A DNA stretch of 63,379 bases, counting the filler, from Reclinomonas americana ATCC 50394 (Eukaryota), in the NCBI GenBank assembly GCA_048213135.1. It is 19 parts of 19 records of this genome, joined end to end, with 100 filler letters (N's around TTAATTAATTAA, not from the genome) between each part and the next. Parts side by side here need not be neighbours in the genome. Positions count along the whole stretch, not along the records: positions 26,956 to 32,455 come from AFZH01023859.1; positions 32,556 to 34,489 come from AFZH01023860.1; 17 more parts are not named here. One strand, 5' to 3'. The position numbers and the translations under genes were made by a program. Positions 8,537-34,799 of the stretch are shown here, in pieces. Under the pieces are notes generated by a model. It was given only the letters and a program-made list of their open reading frames with translations, searched no databases and was not told where the DNA came from. Numbering within the stretch: the first letter of the stretch is position 1; each line of letters starts with the position of its first letter.

Positions 8537-8636
8537 NNNNNNNNNNNNNNNNNNNNNNNNNNNNNNNNNNNNNNNNNNNNTTAATTAATTAANNNNNNNN
8601 NNNNNNNNNNNNNNNNNNNNNNNNNNNNNNNNNNNN
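8537..8636. other. Artificial assembly spacer (first of 18; the others start at 16452, 18262, 19439, 22924, 24252, 25595, 26856, 32456, 34490, 36375, 39088, 45463, 50717, 55501, 57247, 58955 and 62233)
   Basis: Repeated block of N runs around TTAATTAATTAA, which has stops in all six frames. Confidence 0.98.
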
Positions 8637-9850: not shown

Positions 9851-12800
9851 ATGGCGGAGAACCTGGAAGTCGAAGGAGAAGTACATTTCGAATTCGTTCG
9901 ACTTTCGATGCTTCCCTGCGAACTCTGCAGTGCATTTGACTTTCCTCTCACTGTCTCATATACAGGACTACCTGCAAAAGGCCCTTCCCGGCGTTCAAGG
10001 GAGTTTCCTCGCTGGAATCCACCCGTCCAATTCATCCGTCGTCACAGGACGATTGATTGTCCCGGCGCGCTCATTCGCTTGCAAGTCCGCGATCTCCCGT
10101 GCACATGCTTCACATTCACCCCCTTGCTCGTGAGAGAACAGACACCCTGCATCATGCGATTCTGGCTGCGCAAACGTGGAAAACATTACATGTGAGTTGT
10201 GACCAGCAGGCAGTCATTGTTCCGACATTGCACTGCTCACCTGGCGCTGTCACAGTGACCCCACCACCGATGGTGTGGTTAACATTCCGTCATGGTATGT
10301 CCGTTTCACGCCTGGAGACGCCGCACTGACGAAGAAGGTGAGCGATGCTTGAAAGGAGCAGGATGTCCAAGTTGTTGCTGCGCTCTGTGTGTCGGTGCTC
10401 TCGCTGCGCTCTGTGTGTCGGTGCTGTCGCTGTGCTCTGGGTGTCGGTGCTATCGCTGTGCTATTGGTGTCGGTGCTATCGCTGTGCTATTGGTGTCGGT
10501 GCTGTCGCTGTGCTATTGGTGTCGGTGCTGTCGCTGTGCTATTGGTGTCGGTGCTGTCGCTGTGCTCTTGGTGTCGGTGCTATCGCTGTGCTCTTGGTGT
10601 CGGTGCTATCGCTGTGCTCTTGGTGTCGGTGCTATCGCTGCGCTCTTTGTGTCGGTGTTATCGCTGTGCTCTGGGTGTCGGTGCTATCGCTGTGCTCTTG
10701 GTGTCGGCGCTCTCGCTGTGCTCTGGGTGTCGGTACTGTCGCTGTGCTCTGGGTGTCGGTGCTATCGCTGCGCTCTGTGTGTCGGTGCTGTCGCTGTGCT
10801 CTTGGTGTCGGCGCTCTCCCTGTGCTCTGTGTGTCGGTGCTGTCGCTGTGCTCTGTGTGTCAGTGCTGTCGCTGTGCTCTTGCTGTCGGCGCTGTCGCTG
10901 TGCTCTCCATGTCGGTGCTGTCGCTGCACTCTTGCGTGTCGGTGCTGTCACTGTGCTCTGTGTGTGAGTGCTGTCGCTGCACTCTTGGTGTCGATGTGCT
11001 CTGTGTGTCGATGCTGTCGCTGCTCTCTGCGTGTCGGTGCTGTCGCTGTGCTCTGCGTGTTGGTGCTGTCGCTGTGCTCTGTGTGTCGGTGCTATCGCTG
11101 TGCTCTGCGTGTCGGTGCTGTCGCTGCACTCTTGCGTGTCGGTGCTGTCACTGTGCTCTGCGTGTCGGTGCTGTCGCTGTGCTCTGCGTGTCAGTGCTGT
11201 CGCTGTGCTCTGCGTGTCGATGCTGTCGCTGCTCTCTGCGTGTCGGTGCTGTCGCTGCACTCTTGCGTGTCGGTGCTGTCACTGTGCTCTGCGTGTCGGT
11301 GCTGTCGCTGTGCTCTGTGTGTCGATGCTGTCGCTGCTCTCTGCGTGTCGGTGCTGTCGCTGTGCTCTGTGTGTCGGTGCTGTCGCTGTGCTCTGCGTGT
11401 CAGTGCTGTCGCTGTGCTCTTGTGTCGGTGCTGTTCGCTGTGCTCTGCGTGTCGGTGCTGTTCGCTGTGCTCTGCGTGTCAGTGCTGTTCGCTGTGCTCT
11501 GCGTGTCGGTGCTGTTCGCTGTGCTCTGCGTGTCAGTGCTGTCGCTGTGCTCTGCGTGTCGATGCTGTCGCTGCTCTCTGCGTGTCGATGCTGTCGCTGC
11601 GCTCTATGTGTCGGTGCTGTCGCTGTGCTCTGTGTGTCGGTGCTGTCGCTGCGCTCTGTGTGTCGATGCTGTCGCTGCGCTCTGTGTGTCGATGCTGTCG
11701 CTGCTCTCTGCGTGTCGATGCTGTCGCTGCGCTCTGTGTGTCGGTGCTGTCGCTGTGCTCTGTGTGTCGGTGCTGTCGCTGCGCTCTGTGTGTTGGTGCT
11801 ATCGCTGTGCTCTGCGTGTTGGTGCTATCGCTGTGCTCTGGGTGTCGGTACTGTCGCTGTGCTCTGGGTGTCGGTACTGTCGCTGTGCTCTGGGTGTCGG
11901 TGTTATCGCTGCGCTCTGGGTGTCGGTACTGTCGCTGTGCTCTGGGTGTCGGTACTATCGCTGCGCTCTGGGTGTCGGTACTATCGCTGCGCTCTGTGTG
12001 TCGGTGCTATCGCTGTGCTCTGTGTGTCGGCGCTCTCCCTGTGCTCTTGGTGTCGGCGCTCTCGCTGTGCTCTGCGTGTCGGTGCTATCGCTGTGCTCTG
12101 GGTGTCGGTGCTGTCGCTGCACTCTTGGTGTCGTTGCTGTCATTCTCCCTCTCCCTCCCTCTCCCTCCCTCTCCCTCCCTCTCCCTCCCTCTCCCTCCCT
12201 CTCCCTCCCTCTCCCTCCCTCTCCCCTCTCTCTCTTCTCTCTTCTCCTTCTCCCTTTCTTTCTCCCTCTCCCCTCTCTCCCTCCTCCCTCTATCCCTTCT
12301 CCCTTCTCACCCTTCTCCCCTTTTCGCCCTTCCCCATATCTTTCCCCTTGATTCAGGTTGGCCGCCTGAGCCAGGACCACGGCTGGAACTTGTACTCGGT
12401 GGGCCGCCTGGTCATGAGCGACGACGGGCACGGCCAGTGGTTCCTCCGCGAGTACTTTTGCCACCCGAAGGCCTACCGCGAGGCCCTGATGGTCATGCGC
12501 CACCACCTCCACGGCGAGGAGGCCGAGGACTACGAGGGCACGACAATGGACACGCAGGCGCACGGCGAGCGACTGCGCCACCGCCGCCCCATGCTCACCA
12601 AGTCGGCACTGGCGACGCGCCGTCGCATGTCCACCACGGGCGGCGGCGATGACGCCACGACGACGACGACACGGCGCATGGCGATGAGCGATGTGAGTCG
12701 TGGTACGACAATGATCGGCCGTCGCGGCACGGGAGGAGAGTTCACGTGGTCGCCGGCGCGGTGGCGCGCAGGCACCACCACCGGCACCACTGCTGGCGGT

Positions 12801-14838: not shown

Positions 14839-16193
14839 TCAATCGTAGATCGGGAAGAAGCACTTGAAGGCACCCTCGCAAAACTCGGCGGGGTTGTTGA
14901 ACCGGCGGTTGCGATTGAGACCGCTGATGGCAGTCATCTCTTCGTCGCTCAGCGCAAAGTCGAACAGTTCGATGTTCTCGCGCAGGCGCGACTCGTGCAC
15001 TGACTTGGGCACGATGCTGGTGCCGCGCTGGAGGCCCCAGCGCTGCGGGGGAGGGAGGGATGGGTGTGGAGAGAGGAAGAGAAGAGAAGGGGGCGGGTAG
15101 ATACCAGCGCAATTTGAGCCGGGGTCTTATTGTGGCGGGCGGCGCAGGTGGTGACGACTTCGGACTGCGGGTGGGTGGGTGAGTTATCGGGTAAGGAGGG
15201 AGGAAGAGAGACACGAGAGACACGAGAGACACGAGAGGCAAGAGAAGCAAGAGTGGCAAGAGAGGCGAATGAGGCAAGAGAGGCAAGAGAGAGGCAAGAG
15301 AAGCAACAGAGGAAAGAGAGGCAACAGAGGAAGAGAGGCAAGCGAGGCAAGAGAGGCAAGGGATGCAAGAGAAGCAAGAGAAGCAAGAGAGGCAAGAGAG
15401 AGGCAAGAGAGGCAAGAGAGGCAAGAAAGGCAAGAGAGAGGCTAGAGGGGCAAGAGAGGCAAGAGAGGCAAGAGAGGCAAGAGAGACAAGAGGCAAGAGA
15501 GGCAAGAGAGACGAGAGAGGCAAGAGAGGCAAGAGAGGCAAGAGAGGCAAGAGAGGCAAGAGAGGTAAGAGAGACAAGAGAGAGGCAAGAGAGGCAAGAG
15601 AGGCAAGAGAAGCAAGAAAGGTAAGAGAGACAAGAGAGACAAGAGGCAAGAGAGGCAAGAGAGACGAGAGAGGCAAGAGAGGCAAGAGAGGCAAGAGGCA
15701 GGGGAAGCAAGCGAGGCAGGGGAGGCAAGAGAGGCAAGCAAAAGTCACCTGCAACACACTCTCCTCCATCTGCGCCCCGCCGAGGGGCACATACGAGCCG
15801 GCGCCCAGCGGCGAGTACGCCGTCACGCGCACTCCCTCCTCGCGGCAGAAACGCAGGAGGCGCTCTTGCGTGAGGTACGGGTGCATCTCGACCTGGTTAA
15901 CGGCCGGCGGAATGTTGGCAAACGATAGCAGCTCACGCAGAATGACGGTGTTGAAGTTGGCCACGCCCAGGTTGCGCACGAGGCCGGCGTTGGCGCACTC
16001 TTCGAGCGCTTGCCAGGTTTCTTGGAGGGGGACTCGCTCCGGCTCCATGCAGGGGTACTCGGCAGTGAGCTGGGGAGGAGGTGAGATGGCGGAGAAAAGG
16101 GGAGGGTGGGCTGGGGGGTGACTCACGTCGTAGAACCATTCCGGAGGGTAGCGCGTTGCGAAGGGGACGAAGCGGAGGGGGACGGGGAAGTGG
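14839..16193 (-). CDS. Aldo-keto reductase, xylose-reductase-like (5' part missing in gap)
   Basis: Exons 16127-16193, 15749-16069, 15105-15164 and 14839-15042 give HFP..RYPPEW, LGVANF, NQVEMHPYL, TAYSPLG, TPAQIALRW, IVPKS and RRFNNP. Confidence 0.93.
15200..15740 (+). repeat. Nonamer repeat (gaggcaaga)n in an aldo-keto reductase intron
   Basis: Visible tandem array. Confidence 0.9.
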
Positions 16194-19199: not shown

Positions 19200-19800
<601 letters not shown>

Positions 19801-19870
19801 TATCTCCCTTTTTTCTCTCCCTGTCTCTCTTCACATCTATTGTACTCCTCTCATTCTATCCTTGAACAAG

Positions 19871-26955: not shown

Positions 26956-28434
26956 ACGCGTGTGAGCTGCCCCCACGCGTTCCGCCGGTTCAGGGGAGAT
27001 GATGGCCTCATCGGCAGGCGCTCGGTGTTGGCGAGGGGCAACGCCGCTGGCCTCTGCGGCCGGTGCTGGTCCTCCGACACGATGTTGCACGTGCATAGAA
27101 CTGCGTACCCAGCAACACAGAGGATGATGAGTAAACGGACATCATGCATTCTCGTGGGAATGGTCAAGTATACTAGTCACCTCGCCACAGCGTGTGCACC
27201 GACACCTGGAGCGACCGACGAGGAGTCTCCGGCTGGTCGAGACAGCAGCAAATCACGCAGGCTAAGAAGGCGCCCAATCGCTGCACTCTGCGTCACGCCG
27301 GCGCCTAACTTGGAGACAAGATCGTCGAGCTGTTCCTTGACGGACAGCTCCAAGTTGACGCAGGCTCTGGGGGTCGTGTTCTTCTCCTCCACCGGTTTCC
27401 GGGGACGACCTCGCTTGCGCTTGGCCTCGGCTACGGGGCCAACGGCATCGTCACCGCCGTCAAAGTCGGCGGGCACGGGCACGGCCGCGACCGGCACACC
27501 ATCGTCGCCGGCTGCGACGCCTTGCGCTTCATCTGGCAGCACAGCAGCCGGTGCGAGATCGCCGTCGGCAGCGGCGACGACTGGCTGTAGGGGGACAGCT
27601 TGCGGCGGTTGCGGTGGCTGCCGCGGAGACGAGGGCGCTGGGGCTTGCGGCTCGGCAGGTGCCGGCGGTGGTGGTTGCCGTGCCGGTGGCGGTGACATTA
27701 CAGACGGTGGGGAAATTGGTGGGGCGGCGCCTCGGCGGTTCTTCACACTGGCACTGCGCGCACGGGACGATTCCGACACACTGGACCGTGTGGACCCAGT
27801 GGTGGTAGCGGTTTGCGCGCGAGACGATGCAGGGCGCGGCCGCTTCCGCGCAGGAGACGAGGCCGACCGAGATGATGTTGCCTTCGGCGCCGACCGCTCC
27901 AGTCGCACTGCGAGTGGTGACAAAGGAGCGCTGGCCTCGCCCCCGCGCTCCGCAGACTGTGCCCGCCGTCGTCGCTTGCCCGCCTGCATCCCAACAGGCG
28001 ACATGACAACATCCGCATTGTGCGTGGAGCTTGATCCGCGAGGAGGTCGAAATGGCACAGCGTCGTCCTCCATGGGCAGAGCGCGCGCGGCAGCGTTCAT
28101 CCGCACACTTCCGCCGAGTGTATGGCGCCTCTGTGACGGCTGCTGTGAGGGAGAGTGGTGTGTGAGCACACACGACATTTGCATTTCGCGCCAAGATGAC
28201 GCGGATGACGTGCGGGGTCAGTGGGTGCAATGTTGAGACTCTTTCTGCGTGCACTCCCCAGGCAGAGGTGTTCCTCGTGGAGTGCGAGCACGCCGTGCGT
28301 GCGTGTGCACATGGAAGGGGGGGAGTAGTGGACCGCAATGGGTGGAAATGACCGACAAAACGCACCACAGACTCTTCCGCTGATTCGCAGGCCGCCAAAA
28401 GCACTTCCAGTCCATCACCATGATGTACACTCAT
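26956..28434 (-). CDS. Spliced putative DNA-binding protein with an AT-hook and a ribbon-helix-helix-like segment (3' end in gap)
   Basis: Pro/Ala/Ser-rich disordered region, KRKRGRPRKP (about 27393-27423), then RACVNLELSVKEQLDDLVSKLGAGVTQSAAIGRLL. The exon 1 assignment (MSVHHGDGLEVLLAA) is tentative. Confidence 0.6.
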
Positions 28435-28494
28435 GTTGCAGTGAGCGGCGGCGCGCGGCGATGCGTGGAAGTGACCTTTGGATTTTTCTTGAAT

Positions 28495-31400
28495 TCACCG
28501 AAAATCTGGTGGAAGCGTCCCTTTAATAGAAATCCGACACAAACAAAGAAAGTGAGCGCAGCACACTTGCACAACTATGCACAGTGAGAAACGACTCACT
28601 CTTCTGTGCAGCCTGGCGCTGAACTTGCCGAACGCAAAGTGCTGCGTAAACCACGCGGTCTCCTTGCCTGTCCTGCGCCGCTTTTGCGTGACACGGCCTT
28701 GTGCGTCCACGTGCGTCGTCTTGCGTGCAATGATTCGCGGCACCTGTTTGTTGAAATGGGGGACGATACATCGGCTGAAACGATGCTCTCCCACGAGGCT
28801 GTGGCGAGAAAGAAAGCCAAGAAGCATTAATAAGAAAAGCCGCCCACACAAACGTGCCGACACATACAAAGCACTCGAGCTCCGGGCACAGCGCACGCAA
28901 CAACTCGACAACAAAGTTGTGGAAACCATCACGATCTCGGGCAAGTTGCGCCCACAGAGACCGTCGTAGAGCAGCGAAGTGCTTGGCAATCGTTCGAGAG
29001 GCAAATTTTCCGAACTTTGCCTGCTGGCATTGCAGCTGTTTCAGCCGTTTCCGATACTTTCTCATGTAGAGTCGGCAGAAGGCCTTCCCAATCTCAAGCA
29101 CCTCCACCCCACGACCATCTGAGAGCACGTAGAAAGCAAGAACGATCAGTCCGACAGCTACCACACACGACTGTGGTGCAGTGAAACACTCACCGCGACC
29201 AACGGTGAGGCAAGCGAATGCAAGTCGTATTCCAGGGTCGATCGCGATAATGGACTCGAACTCTGCCATGAGCTGGCACAGCAGGACCTCATAGTCGGCT
29301 CGTGGACGGCCGGCGTCCACTGCCGGCTTGCGCGTCCGTTGGCGAGGTTTCGCTGATGATGCTGAAGCTGCTGCAGGTGGCGCAGAACTTGCGGGAACAC
29401 GGCCACGATCTGTGACCTCGGCACCCGTTGGAGCAGTAGCAGCAGTCGGAGCAGCAGTCGGAGCAGCAGTCGGAGCAGCAGTCAGAGCAGCAGTCGGAGC
29501 AGTCTTAGCAGAACGCGGCAGGTTTTTGCGGTACTCAGTCTCCACGTGCAGACCGTCCAGGGCCGAGAGATGCAGAGCAGCCAACTTGTGGCGAGCGTGG
29601 CGATTAGCCCACGCTCCACGCGCAGCCGCCTGCTGACTGGTGATGACCGAAACTGGTGTGCGCATTGCGTCGTCCCACGCCACTCCGGCGACAAGCACCT
29701 CCCCCAGGTAAGTCGCTCCGTCCAGATCTGCTTTTGCTAGCAAAGCGCGTAGCAGCAGCGCACGGACAAAGATATCGGCGTCCGCGTCTGCGGGGTAGTA
29801 GACTGTATGTGAGAACCGAATACCACTGTTAACCAGCGCATCACCGGCCGGCACACACTCACCTCGCTGTCGACAGTGAACAAGGCGCTCCAGGCATTCG
29901 CGAGCGTGTGCGGACTTGCATTCGTCCTCGAGCCAGAGTATCATATCCTCCCAGATTTCTCCAGAACGCAAGTCAAATGCCGCCGCCGCTCGGCCAACGC
30001 CATCCCCCGTGTACTTCACAAACCACCTTGGCGCGAACGCCGTTGTGTCGATGTGCATGCGGAGTCGCCCGCGCAAATCATTGGCTCGCCGTGGCTCAAG
30101 CAGGAATCGCTGAAGGCAAGCGAGTCGTCGGCATTCAATGGTTTGAATGGCAATTAGCGCTGCAAACCAGGTGATGAACAGCGATTAGTTTGATCATTGA
30201 GGGTCGCTTGCAGTGGGCAAGATATATAACGCGCACCAACTTCAAGCCGGATGGAAGCAAGGCCAACTGCAGCGTCGTCATGATCACAATTGTACTTGAT
30301 CTCGCTGCGCACGCTCTCCGGAGAAGATTCAAGCTCGTCATCGGAGCTGACAGCAACGACCAGGGACCGCAATCCAAGAAGCGCAATGCATCGAATCTGA
30401 GAGACACTCGCTGCGTGCGAAAACACAAAACTTAGCACAAGACGAATTACACATCACTCCGCTTTCCCGTTGTCTCTTCTCTCCGCCATTTCGCACTCCA
30501 TGTCTACTTCATCTTCCTCCGCTCTGCGTCTCTCCCCCCACCTCTCCCTGAGTCCCCAATACCGCTACCACTACGCTCACGTACCAGCAACAGCGTGGCG
30601 AACTTGCAGTGTGTTGGTCAAAGTCGTCATTGCTGTGAGTGCATTTCGAGCAGCGTCCTCCACCAGCCAACCAGCGGCGTGATACCGTACATCGACGTCT
30701 GCTCCTCCGACAAAGAGCGAGAGAACAGAGACATCACGATCGTCGGTCAGCACGCTATGCGGCAGGTGGTGCTCCAGATCCAGATCCTCCTCCGCCGTCA
30801 TCTCCAGCACCTTGTGTCGTGCGTCAAACAGAAGATGTCGCATCCTCGTCAGCCGACAGCCTGCAATAATCGCACGCAACGAGTCGTGCGCCACCGACGA
30901 GACAAACTCCGCAAGAGACAGAGACAGTGGGCAGCCTCGTAAGAACACGCTGTACATCGCCGCACGCGCTGACTTCGCATCCGTGCCGCTGGGTTCAGAC
31001 GCGACAAAATGACTGAGCGCAAACGCAGACGCCTCGGTGGCAACACTCCAGAGTGTCCGGCCAGCTGCAGCGAAGAGCGAAGTCGACAATTGCCGCACTT
31101 CATCACTCGCTACGAGTGTATCAACAACCAGCTTGTCCAGTACCGTGATTAGCAACTCGCGGCTTTTTTCTGTCATGTCGATCATCGATCAACAACGAGT
31201 CAGTGAACAGGGGAATAAATGACGAATCGCACACACACATGCGCGCTGCGTACCCTCCTCGCCCGCGCGGCAACTGCGGCATTCCTTGGCGCACTCCAGC
31301 CGTTGAGTCAAGGCAGTGACTTTACGCGTTCGGATCGCGGACTGTGCGTGCAGCATGCCGGCTGCGTCTTGGTAGACATTGGCCACGGCATCCAGCACTG

Positions 31401-34400
31401 CCGACGACCATCGCAACCAAGCGGTAGTGAATGTGACGCCGGCTTGTGCGCGAGCAGATTCGTGAAGGAAGGTGCGCATTCTGTTTCTAACAGCGGTCCG
31501 AAACGCGACAAAGGCCTCGCCTATCCATCGCACAGTCGAGTGTGAGAAAAATGGCTCTGCATAACACACCTGCAGCAAACAACATACCACACTCAGTCGA
31601 ATGCACGCCATCGATTCCGGTAGCCATGCTGGCGAACAGCAAAGAAGCGGCTACCACTTTTTCGAGTGCGTTGATGCAGCGAAGCGTGTCATCGCGGTGC
31701 TTCTGTGTCAACGGCGTGGTGACGATCCGGTTGACAGCCGACGGCACGACATGCAGCGTCGCACACAGCAGCGTGTGTAGTGACCAGCTGTCGCCCTCGC
31801 TCTCCGCAGCACCGTGGCCAGCAAGCGTGTCGTCGAACCATGGGGCGTTGGTGCCCAGCTGCGCGTGCAACAGTCGGAGACCGTCGCAGAGTTGTTGTCG
31901 CAAATCGGTGCGTGCCGGCATGCAGGCTCCCGCAGGCACACCGGCAGCAGTTGGAGCTCGAGATGGTGGGAGCGAAGGGCTGGCAGTGGCCGGGGCTTGT
32001 CGCAACAGGTCGGCCAGCAACTCGACACAGCGGACGATCCGATCCACGGCACTCGAGCAGGTGTGCTTTCGCGTGAAAATGCTGGCATCGGCGACTCGCA
32101 TCGACAGCTCAAGCAGCCTACGAACGGCCGTAACCGCATCGTGGATGATCTCGACAGGCATGTCGTCAATCTGGTCACCGAGGAGAGCAGAGCGCGAAAG
32201 GCGGGGCCACGGTGGAACGTCGACGTCGGCACCAGATAAGACGTGGAGAATGTGCGTAAACGCAAACAGCTCACGTTGCCTCTCTCCCGTGTCAAACGAT
32301 GAGCGAGCGACACGTGCTGCTGAACCTGCAGGGCACGCGCAGTCAAGTTAGCTACTACTGCGCGAAGAACATGAAAGCAGGAAGTGTCGGCCCAGCAACA
32401 CACACCACCCACCCACACACCTTTCACAAAGCGCAGTGCCAAATCAGCAAGTGTTNNNNNNNNNNNNNNNNNNNNNNNNNNNNNNNNNNNNNNNNNNNNT
32501 TAATTAATTAANNNNNNNNNNNNNNNNNNNNNNNNNNNNNNNNNNNNNNNNNNNNAGCTGTGTGTGTCATGATCAGTGACCACGCGTGAGCAACAATATG
32601 GACGAATGAATGGCACCATACAAACCTCGTGAGCGAGGCGTGTTCTTCTCCTTCTTCTTCTTCGGCGCCTGCACCTGGCTCCCGACTGGTGCAGCTGAAG
32701 TCGACTCGGCTGCTAGCACTTGCGTGCGCATCTCATTGGTGCCGACTGCTGGATCCACCTCGTCGCCATCGGCCTCCCCCTCCTCGAGCTCACCGTCGTC
32801 GTCGTCGTCATCGTCGTCGTCGACACCAAGAGCAGCCGCCACGAGCTCGGCAACCACCACCTCCTCGTCGTCGTCGTCGCTGCTGTCATCCGCCTCGTCG
32901 ATGACCACAGCGGCGACAGTCGGCATCGCGATCGGCAAATTCTCAATGTACCGAAAAAAGACGTCGTCGGCCGTCGAGTACAAGACCGCCAGGTCGGCGG
33001 TCGTATAGAGGTTGCCGATGCGGTCGCTCACCAACTGTGAGGCCAGTGTGTGCTTGACAATCAAGTCAACGAGTTCCTTGATGGATTTTTTCATCCACAC
33101 TTTCCGCTTTTTGCCCTTGATCCGGTCCGCCTTGTTCACTACGGACGCCACAGCTTGACCGATGAGGTGCGCGATCGCTGTCACGGTCTCCTCACAGTCA
33201 CGCCCGTATATCGGTACTGTGACAATATCAACACCGGCGGTGTGCATGTCGTCATCTGTGTGCGATTCACAATTATTCTTCAATCCGCAGTCATCGAGAA
33301 GGACACTGGCAGTAAGGGAAGAGTTCAAACGAACCCATGGCAGTCGGGTCCTCGTCGCCGCCCTTGGCTGCATCTGCCGCTGCATCAGCATCGACCGGAG
33401 CCTCGAGTTTGCATCGTGCCTTGTTCAGCATGCTCAAGATCTTCCTCCAACAGCGCTCTAAACATGCCCAACATCAGCAACAACGCGTCACACGAGCAGG
33501 GCCGGCAGTGGGGAGGGTACTTGCGCAACTGAGTCCGATTCGACCAGCGTGGAAGGCGGAGTGCAGCTGGTGCAGGGAAGACTGGAATCGTTGCAAGACC
33601 TCGCCAGTCACCGCATCGGTTTCGATAAAGGCTGCGCAGCATGCGACAGTGAGGATAACACACTGGAAAATTGACACGAGTGGAGAGCAAATGGTTGCGG
33701 CACCTTGTTGTAGGTACTGCAATCTTACAACGTCCGACAAAATTCGCTCCAATGCGACGCGGGTATCCCGGCAATGTTCAGTGAATTCTCGCACCAACAC
33801 GTCATCGTCGCAGATGGCAGCAAATAGTGGCATGTCGCGCAAACTCTCCTTGAACGGCTGGAAGTCTGCGGGAAAGAGACCAAAGGCAGCACCGAGGCAT
33901 GCAGCATTCTTCGCAGCCCCCCAGAATGAATTCGCTGCACGTGAAGTCAGACAACAATGACACACACTCACACATACACACAGGCACAATGACGCGATAT
34001 CACCAAATTGCAAGAGAACATTCACCTTGCAGTGTTGCAGCCTTGGCGGCGTCGACGGCCTCGTCGGGAGCACCCTCCTCCAACGTGATGACGACGGGCA
34101 CAGGCGCGTTGAGAATCGGCATATACTCTGCATGCATGCATCCGCGTCACGTCCGATTGGTCAGCACGTGGACGACTCACAGATGAAAACATGTTGGCCT
34201 ATAGCTCCAAACAGACCTTCGATCACGGGCATGGCGTTCCGTCTCGCAGTGCATGCCAATTCCGCGCTGTCGACACGGCCTCCCACACGTACGGCATCTT
34301 GCACGAACTTGTCCAACTTAGCCTCCACGTGTAGCAGTGCAGACGAGGCCAGCTTCCACGGAGACGGCGCGGCATCCTCCTGCAAAATGGCATAAGTAAG

Positions 34401-34403
34401 CAA
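28495..34403 (-). CDS. Very large multi-exon protein with a C-terminal Fanzor2/TnpB-like RuvC-I and bridge-helix region (5' end in gap)
   Basis: Removing GT-AG introns 29119-29193 and 28775-28874 gives IIAIDPGIRLAFACLTVGRDGRGVEVLEIG...RKRLKQLQ...RDGFHNFVVELLRALCPELDRCIVPHFNKQVPRIIARK...RRTGKETAWFTQHFAFGKFSARL. The upstream junctions I checked splice in phase, including donor 32625 to acceptor 32326 across the spacer. Confidence 0.72.
29441..29504 (-). repeat. 12-bp coding repeat giving a (TAAP)n linker before RuvC-I
   Basis: About five copies of agcagtcggagc. Confidence 0.85.
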
Positions 34404-34799
34404 CAGGTAGACAGGGAGAGAGAGAGAGAGAGGAGGAGAGAGGAGGAGAGAGAGGAGGGAGGAGAGTAGTAGGGAAGGGGGGAGGAGAGNNNNNNNNNNN
34501 NNNNNNNNNNNNNNNNNNNNNNNNNNNNNNNNNTTAATTAATTAANNNNNNNNNNNNNNNNNNNNNNNNNNNNNNNNNNNNNNNNNNNNGCGTCGGGGCC
34601 ACGGGGGCAATGGGCGCATCGTCTGTGTGGTGGAGGAGAAGGGAGGCGGAGGTGGATGAGATACCGATATTCAAAAAAGCAGATGGTTCCCTCTCTCTCC
34701 CCTATATATCAGTCTTTCTCTGCCACTCCCCTCCCCTCTCCCCTTTCTTTCTCTCTTTCCCTTCCCACTCCCCTCTCCTCCTTTCCCCCCCTCCACGCA

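Follow-up and report, generated by a model that had tools for sequence, protein, structure and literature searches.

The DNA examined here is a stretch of 63,379 nucleotides (nt) of Reclinomonas americana ATCC 50394 (assembly GCA_048213135.1), called the window below. It consists of short contigs with 18 linkers between them, all identical (N44-TTAATTAATTAA-N44) and spaced every 1-6 kb, such as those at 8537-8636, 32456-32555 and 34490-34589 (no strand); because of this layout, genes that cross a linker are joined only provisionally. On its minus strand, between 34379 and 28431, the window carries a large intron-containing gene, with a short segment near its 3' end that resembles the RuvC-I region of Fanzor2 and of the related TnpB proteins. 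A sequence-only reading of the window had described this gene as a Fanzor2/TnpB derivative fused to a large N-terminal region of no known family, and had proposed that it encodes a domesticated or strongly elaborated RNA-guided protein.

Fifteen exons with GT-AG borders were chained on the minus strand (34379-28431) into a single open frame. Three splice versions of the tail (vA, vB and vC) were scored, and the coordinates of the model are given for vA. Exons 1-5 lie at 34379-34217, 34127-34026, 33934-33704, 33631-33521 and 33457-33335; exons 6-10 at 33255-32626, 32325-31588, 31520-31254, 31169-30585 and 30410-30237; and exons 11-15 at 30159-29863, 29787-29194, 29118-28854, 28798-28600 and 28520-28431. 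Exons 1-13 comprise 4,266 nt (1,422 codons) without a stop, and exons 1-15 comprise 4,569 nt, encoding 1,522 amino acids (aa) followed by a lone terminal TGA at 28433-28431. The absence of internal stops bore out the in-phase junctions that had been claimed for a chain of about this size. When the exons were scored by a codon model trained each time on the other exons (leave-one-out), the model frame was preferred in all 13 of the 13 exons. The introns measured 63-174 nt and no mutual similarity was found among them.

Both the 5' end and the middle of the model touch linkers. It has no start codon, as had been noted before, because exon 1 opens at an acceptor just below the linker at 34490-34589, which the 5' end of the model reaches. 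The start codon was probably lost in this linker; an ATG at 34619-34617 was seen by eye to read into it. Intron 6 contains the linker at 32456-32555, which places exons 1-6 on one contig and exons 7-15 on another. The frame does continue across the junction from 32626 to 32325, as proposed in the sequence-only reading; that junction spans the linker and joins two contigs, and further exons may be missing within it. Exons 7-15, which are contiguous with the Fanzor-like tail, encode ~1,070 aa.

Introns 1-12 (28868-34217) are all in phase 1 (12 of 12), and 11 of the 12 follow a first-position G, every exon between exon 1 and exon 13 being a multiple of 3 nt. Such uniformity in 12 introns would be very unlikely if the three phases were equally probable. 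Introns 11 (29788-29862) and 12 (29119-29193) are each exactly 75 nt long, and neither of them shifts the frame or contains a stop. Both are therefore read through by a 553-codon open reading frame (ORF) at 30184-28526, and their retention would keep the frame.

The segment similar to Fanzor2 and TnpB covers residues 1318-1410 of the model (~93 aa; 28904..29257, minus strand) and is split by intron 12 (29193-29119). It contains the RuvC-I motif ESIIAIDPGIRLAFAC, whose DPG (GAC CCT GGA, 29239-29231) falls on the invariant DPG columns in alignments with the family profiles, and it ends, after a hairpin and helices, in the His helix RDRDGFHNFVVE (28927-28904). The position of the DPG was exactly that reported earlier, and its standing as a Fanzor feature is in print. 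In the accessible text of PMC10711439, the Fanzor fingerprint combines DPG at the RuvC-I Asp with two CxxC motifs, the first of them preceded at a distance of six residues by a Glu, and with the RuvC-III Asp, written as the pattern DPGx(120,160)ExxxxxxCxxCx(12,18)CxxCx(4,8)D.

Since one specific family had been proposed, the family profiles used for the comparison were purpose-built. Viral contigs were scanned with the motif E-x-Y-T-[ST]-K-x-C-x-x-C-G, and 122 loci were obtained. Fifty-four of these carried a motif-bearing ORF of at least 250 aa, and 46 of the 54 had a DPG; the cores of these 46 ORFs constituted profile A1. A second profile was made from 109 of the 120 proteins that A1 retrieved from a protein collection. 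The best match of the A1 set among solved structures was the mimivirus Fanzor2 L79 (PDB 9b0l), followed by TnpB and Cas12f structures; the reference sets matched 9b0l at E 7e-53 (A1) and 9e-16. PF07282 was found in 46 of the 46 A1 cores and PF01385 in 40 of the 46.

With the spliced C-terminal peptide as the query, the A1 hidden Markov model (HMM) gave 16.1 bits for vB, 14.2 for vA and 12.0 for vC (E 3e-7 to 6e-6, calculated for one target). None of 20,000 shuffles reached 12 bits, the maximum being 10.1. The second profile gave 16.4, 14.7 and 13.4 bits for the spliced versions, and reversed-model controls gave 0.4-1.9 bits. Even unspliced, the Fanzor-like ORF ranked first of the 963 six-frame ORFs in the window; because it is the best of these 963, the match exceeds chance within this window. 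The chain of exons, too, is more than a chance product. In pairwise phmmer comparisons with 155 family cores, the best score was 19.0 bits, against 6.7 for reversed copies. The top five pairwise relatives were TnpB-like ORFs of ~430 aa on viral contigs, some of them 330-369 kb long, and blocks of likeness to the nearest relatives can be seen by eye (IVAIDPGVRTPFACF against IIAIDPGIRLAFACL, and RRRLYRQHQRVRDIYH against RRSLWAQLARDRDGFH).

The tail scored 21 bits with a profile of the nearest subgroup (15 ORFs from 16 loci, 434 positions), and the entire protein of about 1,500 residues scored 17 bits. Only positions 225-308 of the 434 aligned, and 21 bits was reached by none of 20,000 shuffles. 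When alignments were compared by hhalign, the RuvC-I block matched A1 over 19 columns (probability 73%, E 3.1e-5), and the His-helix block matched the subgroup alignment A2 over 28 columns (66%, E 5.5e-5), collinear with the first. The 75-nt intron 12 had been called from its GTGAGT...CAG signals alone, with no frame requirement; its removal, compared like for like, raised the broad profiles from 9.4 to 13.6-15.0 bits and the subgroup profile from 15.7 to 23.0 bits, a gain of 4.2-7.3. From these results we regard 29257-28904, with considerable confidence, as homologous to the RuvC-I region of DPG-type TnpB and Fanzor2 proteins. The identity proposed by the sequence-only reading is thus supported for ~93 aa (29257-28904); similarity to the rest of RuvC is weak or absent, and there is none to the zinc finger or the WED/REC part. 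For the spliced peptide of 28600-29300, which the sequence-only reading had named as its own check, a significant match was confined to the purpose-built profiles and to the first half of the peptide.

The segment is tied to the upstream sequence by exon 12, a single exon of 594 nt (29787-29194, minus strand). In it, sequence unlike Fanzor is followed by TAPTAA, a linker of low complexity at 29503-29426, then by the basic PRQRTRKP patch (29347-29324) and finally by the RuvC-I motif. The non-Fanzor sequence and RuvC-I share one ORF in this exon, and the first in-frame stop comes after the Fanzor-like part. About 100 aa of low-complexity linker sequence precede RuvC-I.

Upstream of this, exons 1-11 (29863..34379, minus strand) encode an N-terminal region of no known family that is predicted to be helical. 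Its acidic tracts (32899-32861 and 32824-32759) and its basic patches (33118-33086 and, as KKKKEK, 32662-32645) include the acidic tract and the KKKK patch that had been noticed before. Apart from one chance-level match, Pfam assigned no family at E<=0.1 to exons 1-11 or to the initial half of exon 12. As the sequence-only reading had described, the segment shares its open frame with this large region, for which no family is known. Exon 9 had no relatives among longer proteins in a word-based search, nor in metagenome contigs. For exon 7, the ESM Atlas gave nothing beyond alpha-solenoid leads (LINES_N, TPR_DOP1, HEATR5A, Tra1 and exportin-like) at 0.83-0.89. Taken with the acidic tracts and basic patches, these leads suggest a nuclear helical-repeat protein.

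At the 3' end the junctions are less regular. Two canonical introns had been counted in the terminal part of the gene; we found three, and the junctions between exons 13 and 14 and between exons 14 and 15 are atypical. The simplest and strongest splice pair for exons 13 and 14, the donor GTATGT (28867) with the acceptor CACAG (28799), leads to a frame other than that of the sequence-only reading. The latter frame requires either a donor GTTTGT at 28853, giving a 55-nt intron (vA), or a GAG acceptor at 28786 (vB). By the codon model it was the best of the three frames of exon 14, at +4.6 versus -5.8 for the strongest splice pair and -19.8 for the remaining frame. A GAG acceptor occurs in none of the 12 other introns, and vB was rejected for this reason; exon 15 relies on an AAG acceptor, which is likewise found in 0 of 12 other introns.

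We next consider what lies downstream of the His helix. Exon 14, in the earlier frame (28600..28798, minus strand), contains IVPHF at 28767-28753, with its Pro at 28761-28759 exactly where it had been placed; the surrounding peptide reads FSRCIVPHF and not, as first given, LDRCIVPHF. The exon also contains QHFAFGKFSARL (28644-28609), a candidate counterpart of the SHYxFxxRL helix. IVPHF gave the best local alignment to the LLPxF strand of the family. The similarity of exon 14 is weak (p ~0.004-0.006 with the broad sub-profile), and its hhalign probability was 0.2-0.7%; IVPHF and QHFAFGKFSARL are accordingly treated here as candidates for the LLPxF strand and the SHYxFxxRL helix, a correspondence that is still unproven. 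That Fanzors carry Pro at the canonical RuvC-II Glu, as had been stated, is in print: Pro or Gly stands there and an alternative Glu follows ~45-50 residues later, according to the parts of PMC10530073 and PMC11832414 that are available. In the window, the only candidate for such a Glu (28496-28494) lies in the GRFHQIFGEF stretch of exon 15 (28431..28520, minus strand) and is followed by 20 aa and the TGA. The spacing from Asp to Pro is 107-116 aa (family range 69-124) and that from Asp to Glu 169-178 aa (family range 118-188). It is plausible but unproven that VPHF represents RuvC-II and GEF the alternative Glu.

The remaining parts of a Fanzor were absent. The published pattern was found in none of the three splice versions, and the candidate Glu has no following Cys; the same pattern was present in 29 of the 54 motif-bearing viral ORFs and in 89 of the 120 database proteins. 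There is no zinc finger: the tail has at most one CxxC (0-1), no pair of CxxC motifs and no PF07282 match. There is no RuvC-III Asp of the DRD...NI helix, the frame stopping 20 aa after the candidate Glu, and no remnant of a zinc finger or of RuvC-III was found in three frames of 26956-28620. Missing too is the 3' part of the nuclease gene, where Fanzors encode their guide (omega) RNA. PF01385 had no match in the tail. As for WED/REC, the 282 aa upstream of the motif gave an hhalign probability of 0.2%, and full-length profiles aligned only from RuvC-I onward; this negative is sequence-based, and a very diverged fold could escape it. Fanzor2 is described, in the accessible part of PMC11832414, as having REC, WED, RuvC and zinc-finger domains, with N-terminal WED and REC holding guide RNA and DNA, and the catalytic triad Asp324, Glu467 and Asp501, residues that map by alignment to positions 232, 368 and 400-402 of our subgroup profile. 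The notion of a domesticated or elaborated RNA-guided protein found no support in these comparisons: the pattern, the zinc finger, the RuvC-III Asp and WED/REC are all wanting, and the alignment of VPHF is not significant.

Around the segment there were no terminal repeats, which had been suggested as a feature to look for; the only inverted pair in 27000-30300 is one of 14 nt. No second copy was found in the window by a profile scan of six-frame ORFs or by self-BLAST, the latter not being relied on because it left a visible 12-nt tandem repeat unlisted. None of 20 neighbouring ORFs belonged to a transposase family.

The explanation that we favour, with moderate confidence, is that a large orphan host gene carries, in frame at its 3' end, a truncated, nuclease-dead remnant of a DPG-type TnpB/Fanzor2. 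A Fanzor2 copy truncated at both its 5' and its 3' end, coming from an IS607-like element or from a giant-virus insertion, would have reached the 3' end of the host gene and been captured into its reading frame, introns being gained later or already present. The parts retained would be the RuvC-I strand, which bears the catalytic Asp, together with the beta-hairpin and the helices up to the conserved His helix; retention of the remainder of the five-stranded core is more doubtful. If the tail is transcribed together with the upstream exons, as we infer, it would now serve as a non-catalytic C-terminal extension of a helical and probably nuclear protein, and any contact that it still makes with nucleic acid would be residual. 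With the WED/REC half, the zinc finger and the RuvC-III Asp missing, it would therefore have no RNA-guided nuclease function.

A number of results weigh against this explanation. Even with the cut-off relaxed to E<=10, Pfam, NCBIfam and PHROGs yielded no family of the TnpB, RuvC or resolvase type for the tail pieces. Weak matches to PT repeat, BUD22, DUF2852, HAM1_N, TrbL and phrog_33379 were judged to be due to chance. A PDB sequence search with pieces of 148 and 66 aa returned nothing relevant, and a phmmer search with the 553-aa read-through ORF (30184-28526) gave 0 matches among 1.84 billion representative proteins. Exons 12-13 had no relative in a word-based search among longer proteins; because the word searches were confined to longer proteins, the term orphan, for the C-terminal third, rests mainly on the search of 1.84 billion. 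No relative of exon 13 was found in metagenome contigs. As to the score itself, 10-12 of the 12-16 bits stem from 20 aa around the DPG, and this 20-aa motif is what led the locus to be chosen in the first place. Exon 13 alone gave 1.7-2.7 bits with the broad profiles, a level reached by 153-301 of 20,000 shuffles; with the subgroup profile, chosen post hoc, it gave 6.0 bits (13 of 20,000 shuffles). Its best pairwise score, 7.8, was no better than that of reversed decoys (7.2). The sequence after DPGIRLAFA gave only 4.4-4.7 bits with the broad sub-profile (77-128 of 20,000 shuffles). Exons 14-15 scored -0.2 and -0.4 bits against the downstream part of the subgroup profile, which 20-23% of shuffles reach; this test is a clean one because the subgroup had been picked on exons 12-13. 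That subgroup was selected post hoc, as the best of 155, and the full-length profile of 600 positions gave only 3.6 bits against the full protein. Many windows were read, moreover, and a chance match of such size is to be expected somewhere. Finally, no orthologue turned up, and co-transcription of the two parts is a deduction from the DNA.

This last point bears on the view that the fusion is an artefact of the gene model. A real Fanzor-like remnant would then be a separate dead element, downstream of the gene or within its last intron or 3' untranslated region; no fusion protein would exist, and the open frame joining the two parts would be an accident of GC-rich sequence and of the choice of splice sites. 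The model is indeed weakest at the junction of exons 13 and 14, where a 55-nt intron or else a GAG acceptor is needed, and at that of exons 14 and 15, with its AAG acceptor; the low-complexity linker at 29503-29426 also divides the two parts. Against this view, a single stop-free exon of 594 nt holds both RuvC-I and the part unlike Fanzor, the frame stays open for 553 codons (30184-28526) even unspliced, codon-model scores are positive through exons 11-13, and no element ends or terminal repeats surround the segment. We hold an artefact of this kind to be unlikely.

A chance resemblance would have an orphan protein with the string I-I-A-I-D-P-G-I-R and some basic helices scoring weakly against a family that is itself basic and helical. 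It would account for the negative results with the curated libraries and the PDB, for a score that lies mostly within 20 aa, for an exon 13 that by itself equals decoys in pairwise comparison and for an exon 14 that is not significant, and the reading of many windows makes it easier to accept. It fits poorly with 12-16 bits from two independent profiles, where 0 of 20,000 shuffles reached 12, with a pairwise score of 19.0 against 6.7 for decoys, and with the second, collinear block at E 5.5e-5. Nor would chance readily explain why removal of an independently predicted intron adds 4-7 bits, or why the spacings fall inside the family ranges. We therefore consider it improbable. Another source for the IDPG motif was also considered: this motif resembles those of RuvC, Ydc2 and poxvirus-A22-type resolvases. 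These candidates were rejected, there being no Pfam match to any of them and the spacing of ~85-95 aa from the hairpin to the next candidate strand fitting TnpB better.

Structure-based comparisons added little. AlphaFold2, run on the unspliced 148-aa piece with no alignment, returned an all-helix model with a predicted local distance difference test score (pLDDT) of 53.5. In the ESM Atlas, the peptide of 28868-29311 (minus strand) met an OrfB_IS605 cluster first at rank 29 of the nearest 30 clusters, with a score of 0.90. Fourteen of these 30 clusters form a DUF8286 set (PF26935 on 25% of the members in the listed cluster, mostly from Mucoromycota). The 28868-29311 region gave no Pfam match to DUF8286, and this family is absent from the searchable literature.

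No more probable than chance resemblance, in our estimate, is the idea that selection has kept the RuvC core (the Asp strand, the hairpin and the helix whose mimivirus Fanzor2 counterpart touches the guide-RNA pseudoknot), which would now form the non-catalytic C-terminal domain of a helical-repeat protein of the nucleus with 1,000 aa or more. The idea of a working domesticated or elaborated RNA-guided protein, with equivalents of WED/REC hidden in the N-terminal region, can draw on the large upstream region of unrecognised fold, on the retained DPG Asp and RD..H helix and on the contacts that residues flanking the conserved His (Asp397 and Lys401; the His mapped by alignment) make with the guide-RNA pseudoknot in mimivirus Fanzor2, as stated in the accessible part of PMC11832414, yet it is highly improbable in view of the absent zinc finger and RuvC-III Asp in a frame that ends, the absence of WED/REC similarity by HMM and hhalign, the ~100 aa of low-complexity linker before RuvC-I and the lack of a conserved family around the protein from which a guide RNA could be defined.

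The truncated, nuclease-dead remnant was then compared with known systems. It shares with Fanzor2 and the DPG-type IS607 TnpBs (pro-Fanzor, TnpB2; L79 ApmFz2, 9b0l) an alignable DPG RuvC-I, hairpin and His helix. Unlike those proteins, it has only ~93 demonstrably related aa, inside a protein of ~1,500 aa; it lacks WED/REC, the zinc finger, the RuvC-III Asp and a provable alternative Glu, and no transposon ends were found. The intron-bearing Fanzors of eukaryotes, as far as the available part of PMC10530073 describes them, likewise have spliceosomal introns within the nuclease coding region and basic patches resembling nuclear localization signals. They are, however, complete nucleases of ~400-1,000 aa that are linked to transposons, whereas here a fragment ends a larger, unrelated ORF.

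The TldR proteins (PMC10705468; review PMC13565253) offer another parallel, being bacterial proteins derived from TnpB that have lost nuclease capacity, reside outside transposons and have been exapted as RNA-guided repressors. In the accessible portions of these sources, TldRs retain both a guide RNA and the body that binds it, their losses being limited to catalytic residues or a short stretch at the C terminus. In the protein of the window, by contrast, the RNA-binding half is absent, and WED/REC, which belong to the intact guide-RNA-binding body of a TldR, were not detectable by HMM or hhalign. A further parallel is offered by host gene-transposon fusions that arise through exon capture, such as the CSB-PiggyBac fusion (PMC2268245, from its accessible part), in which a mobile-element coding fragment likewise forms, in frame, the 3' end of a host gene. 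Transcripts, protein and conservation are known in that case, whereas the gene described here is known from DNA alone.

Bacterial TnpBs have repeatedly become host tools (Cas12, TldR), and Fanzors are known, from the portions of the literature available, as transposon- or virus-borne RNA-guided nucleases. The accessible text on TldRs shows that its authors anticipated cases of exaptation in eukaryotes (PMC10705468), and no exaptation of a eukaryotic TnpB or Fanzor into a cellular protein is described in the searchable literature. Capture of mobile elements by host genes is already known; a Fanzor as the source is probably new here. Should the RuvC core prove to be a selected exaptation, this would be the first Fanzor fragment exapted into a eukaryotic cellular protein. 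A Fanzor piece in frame with a large host protein would be a candidate for the initial stage of such a capture. For the present, the locus is chiefly an example of how a fragment of a dead nuclease can lengthen the reading frame of a host gene and come to carry introns, and its importance is small unless the fusion proves, from transcripts and orthologues, to be both produced and conserved.

The surroundings of the gene contain a few further features. Just downstream and on the same strand, 27180-28217 (minus strand) holds an ORF rich in Pro, Ala and Ser with the string KRKRGRPRKP, which looks like an AT-hook by eye; it matched no Pfam family and is probably the next gene. The sole Pfam-positive ORF of the 20 neighbours tested lies at 61246-62280 (minus strand) and carries a GEVED domain (E 5.2e-18). 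At 10260-12000, 15177-15760 and 19247-19830 lie long tandem arrays, their repeat periods being 26 nt and 9 nt. Simple repeats rich in CT or GA flank many of the linkers, and one (GA)n/(CT)n pair forms an inverted repeat of 178 nt with ~95% complementarity.

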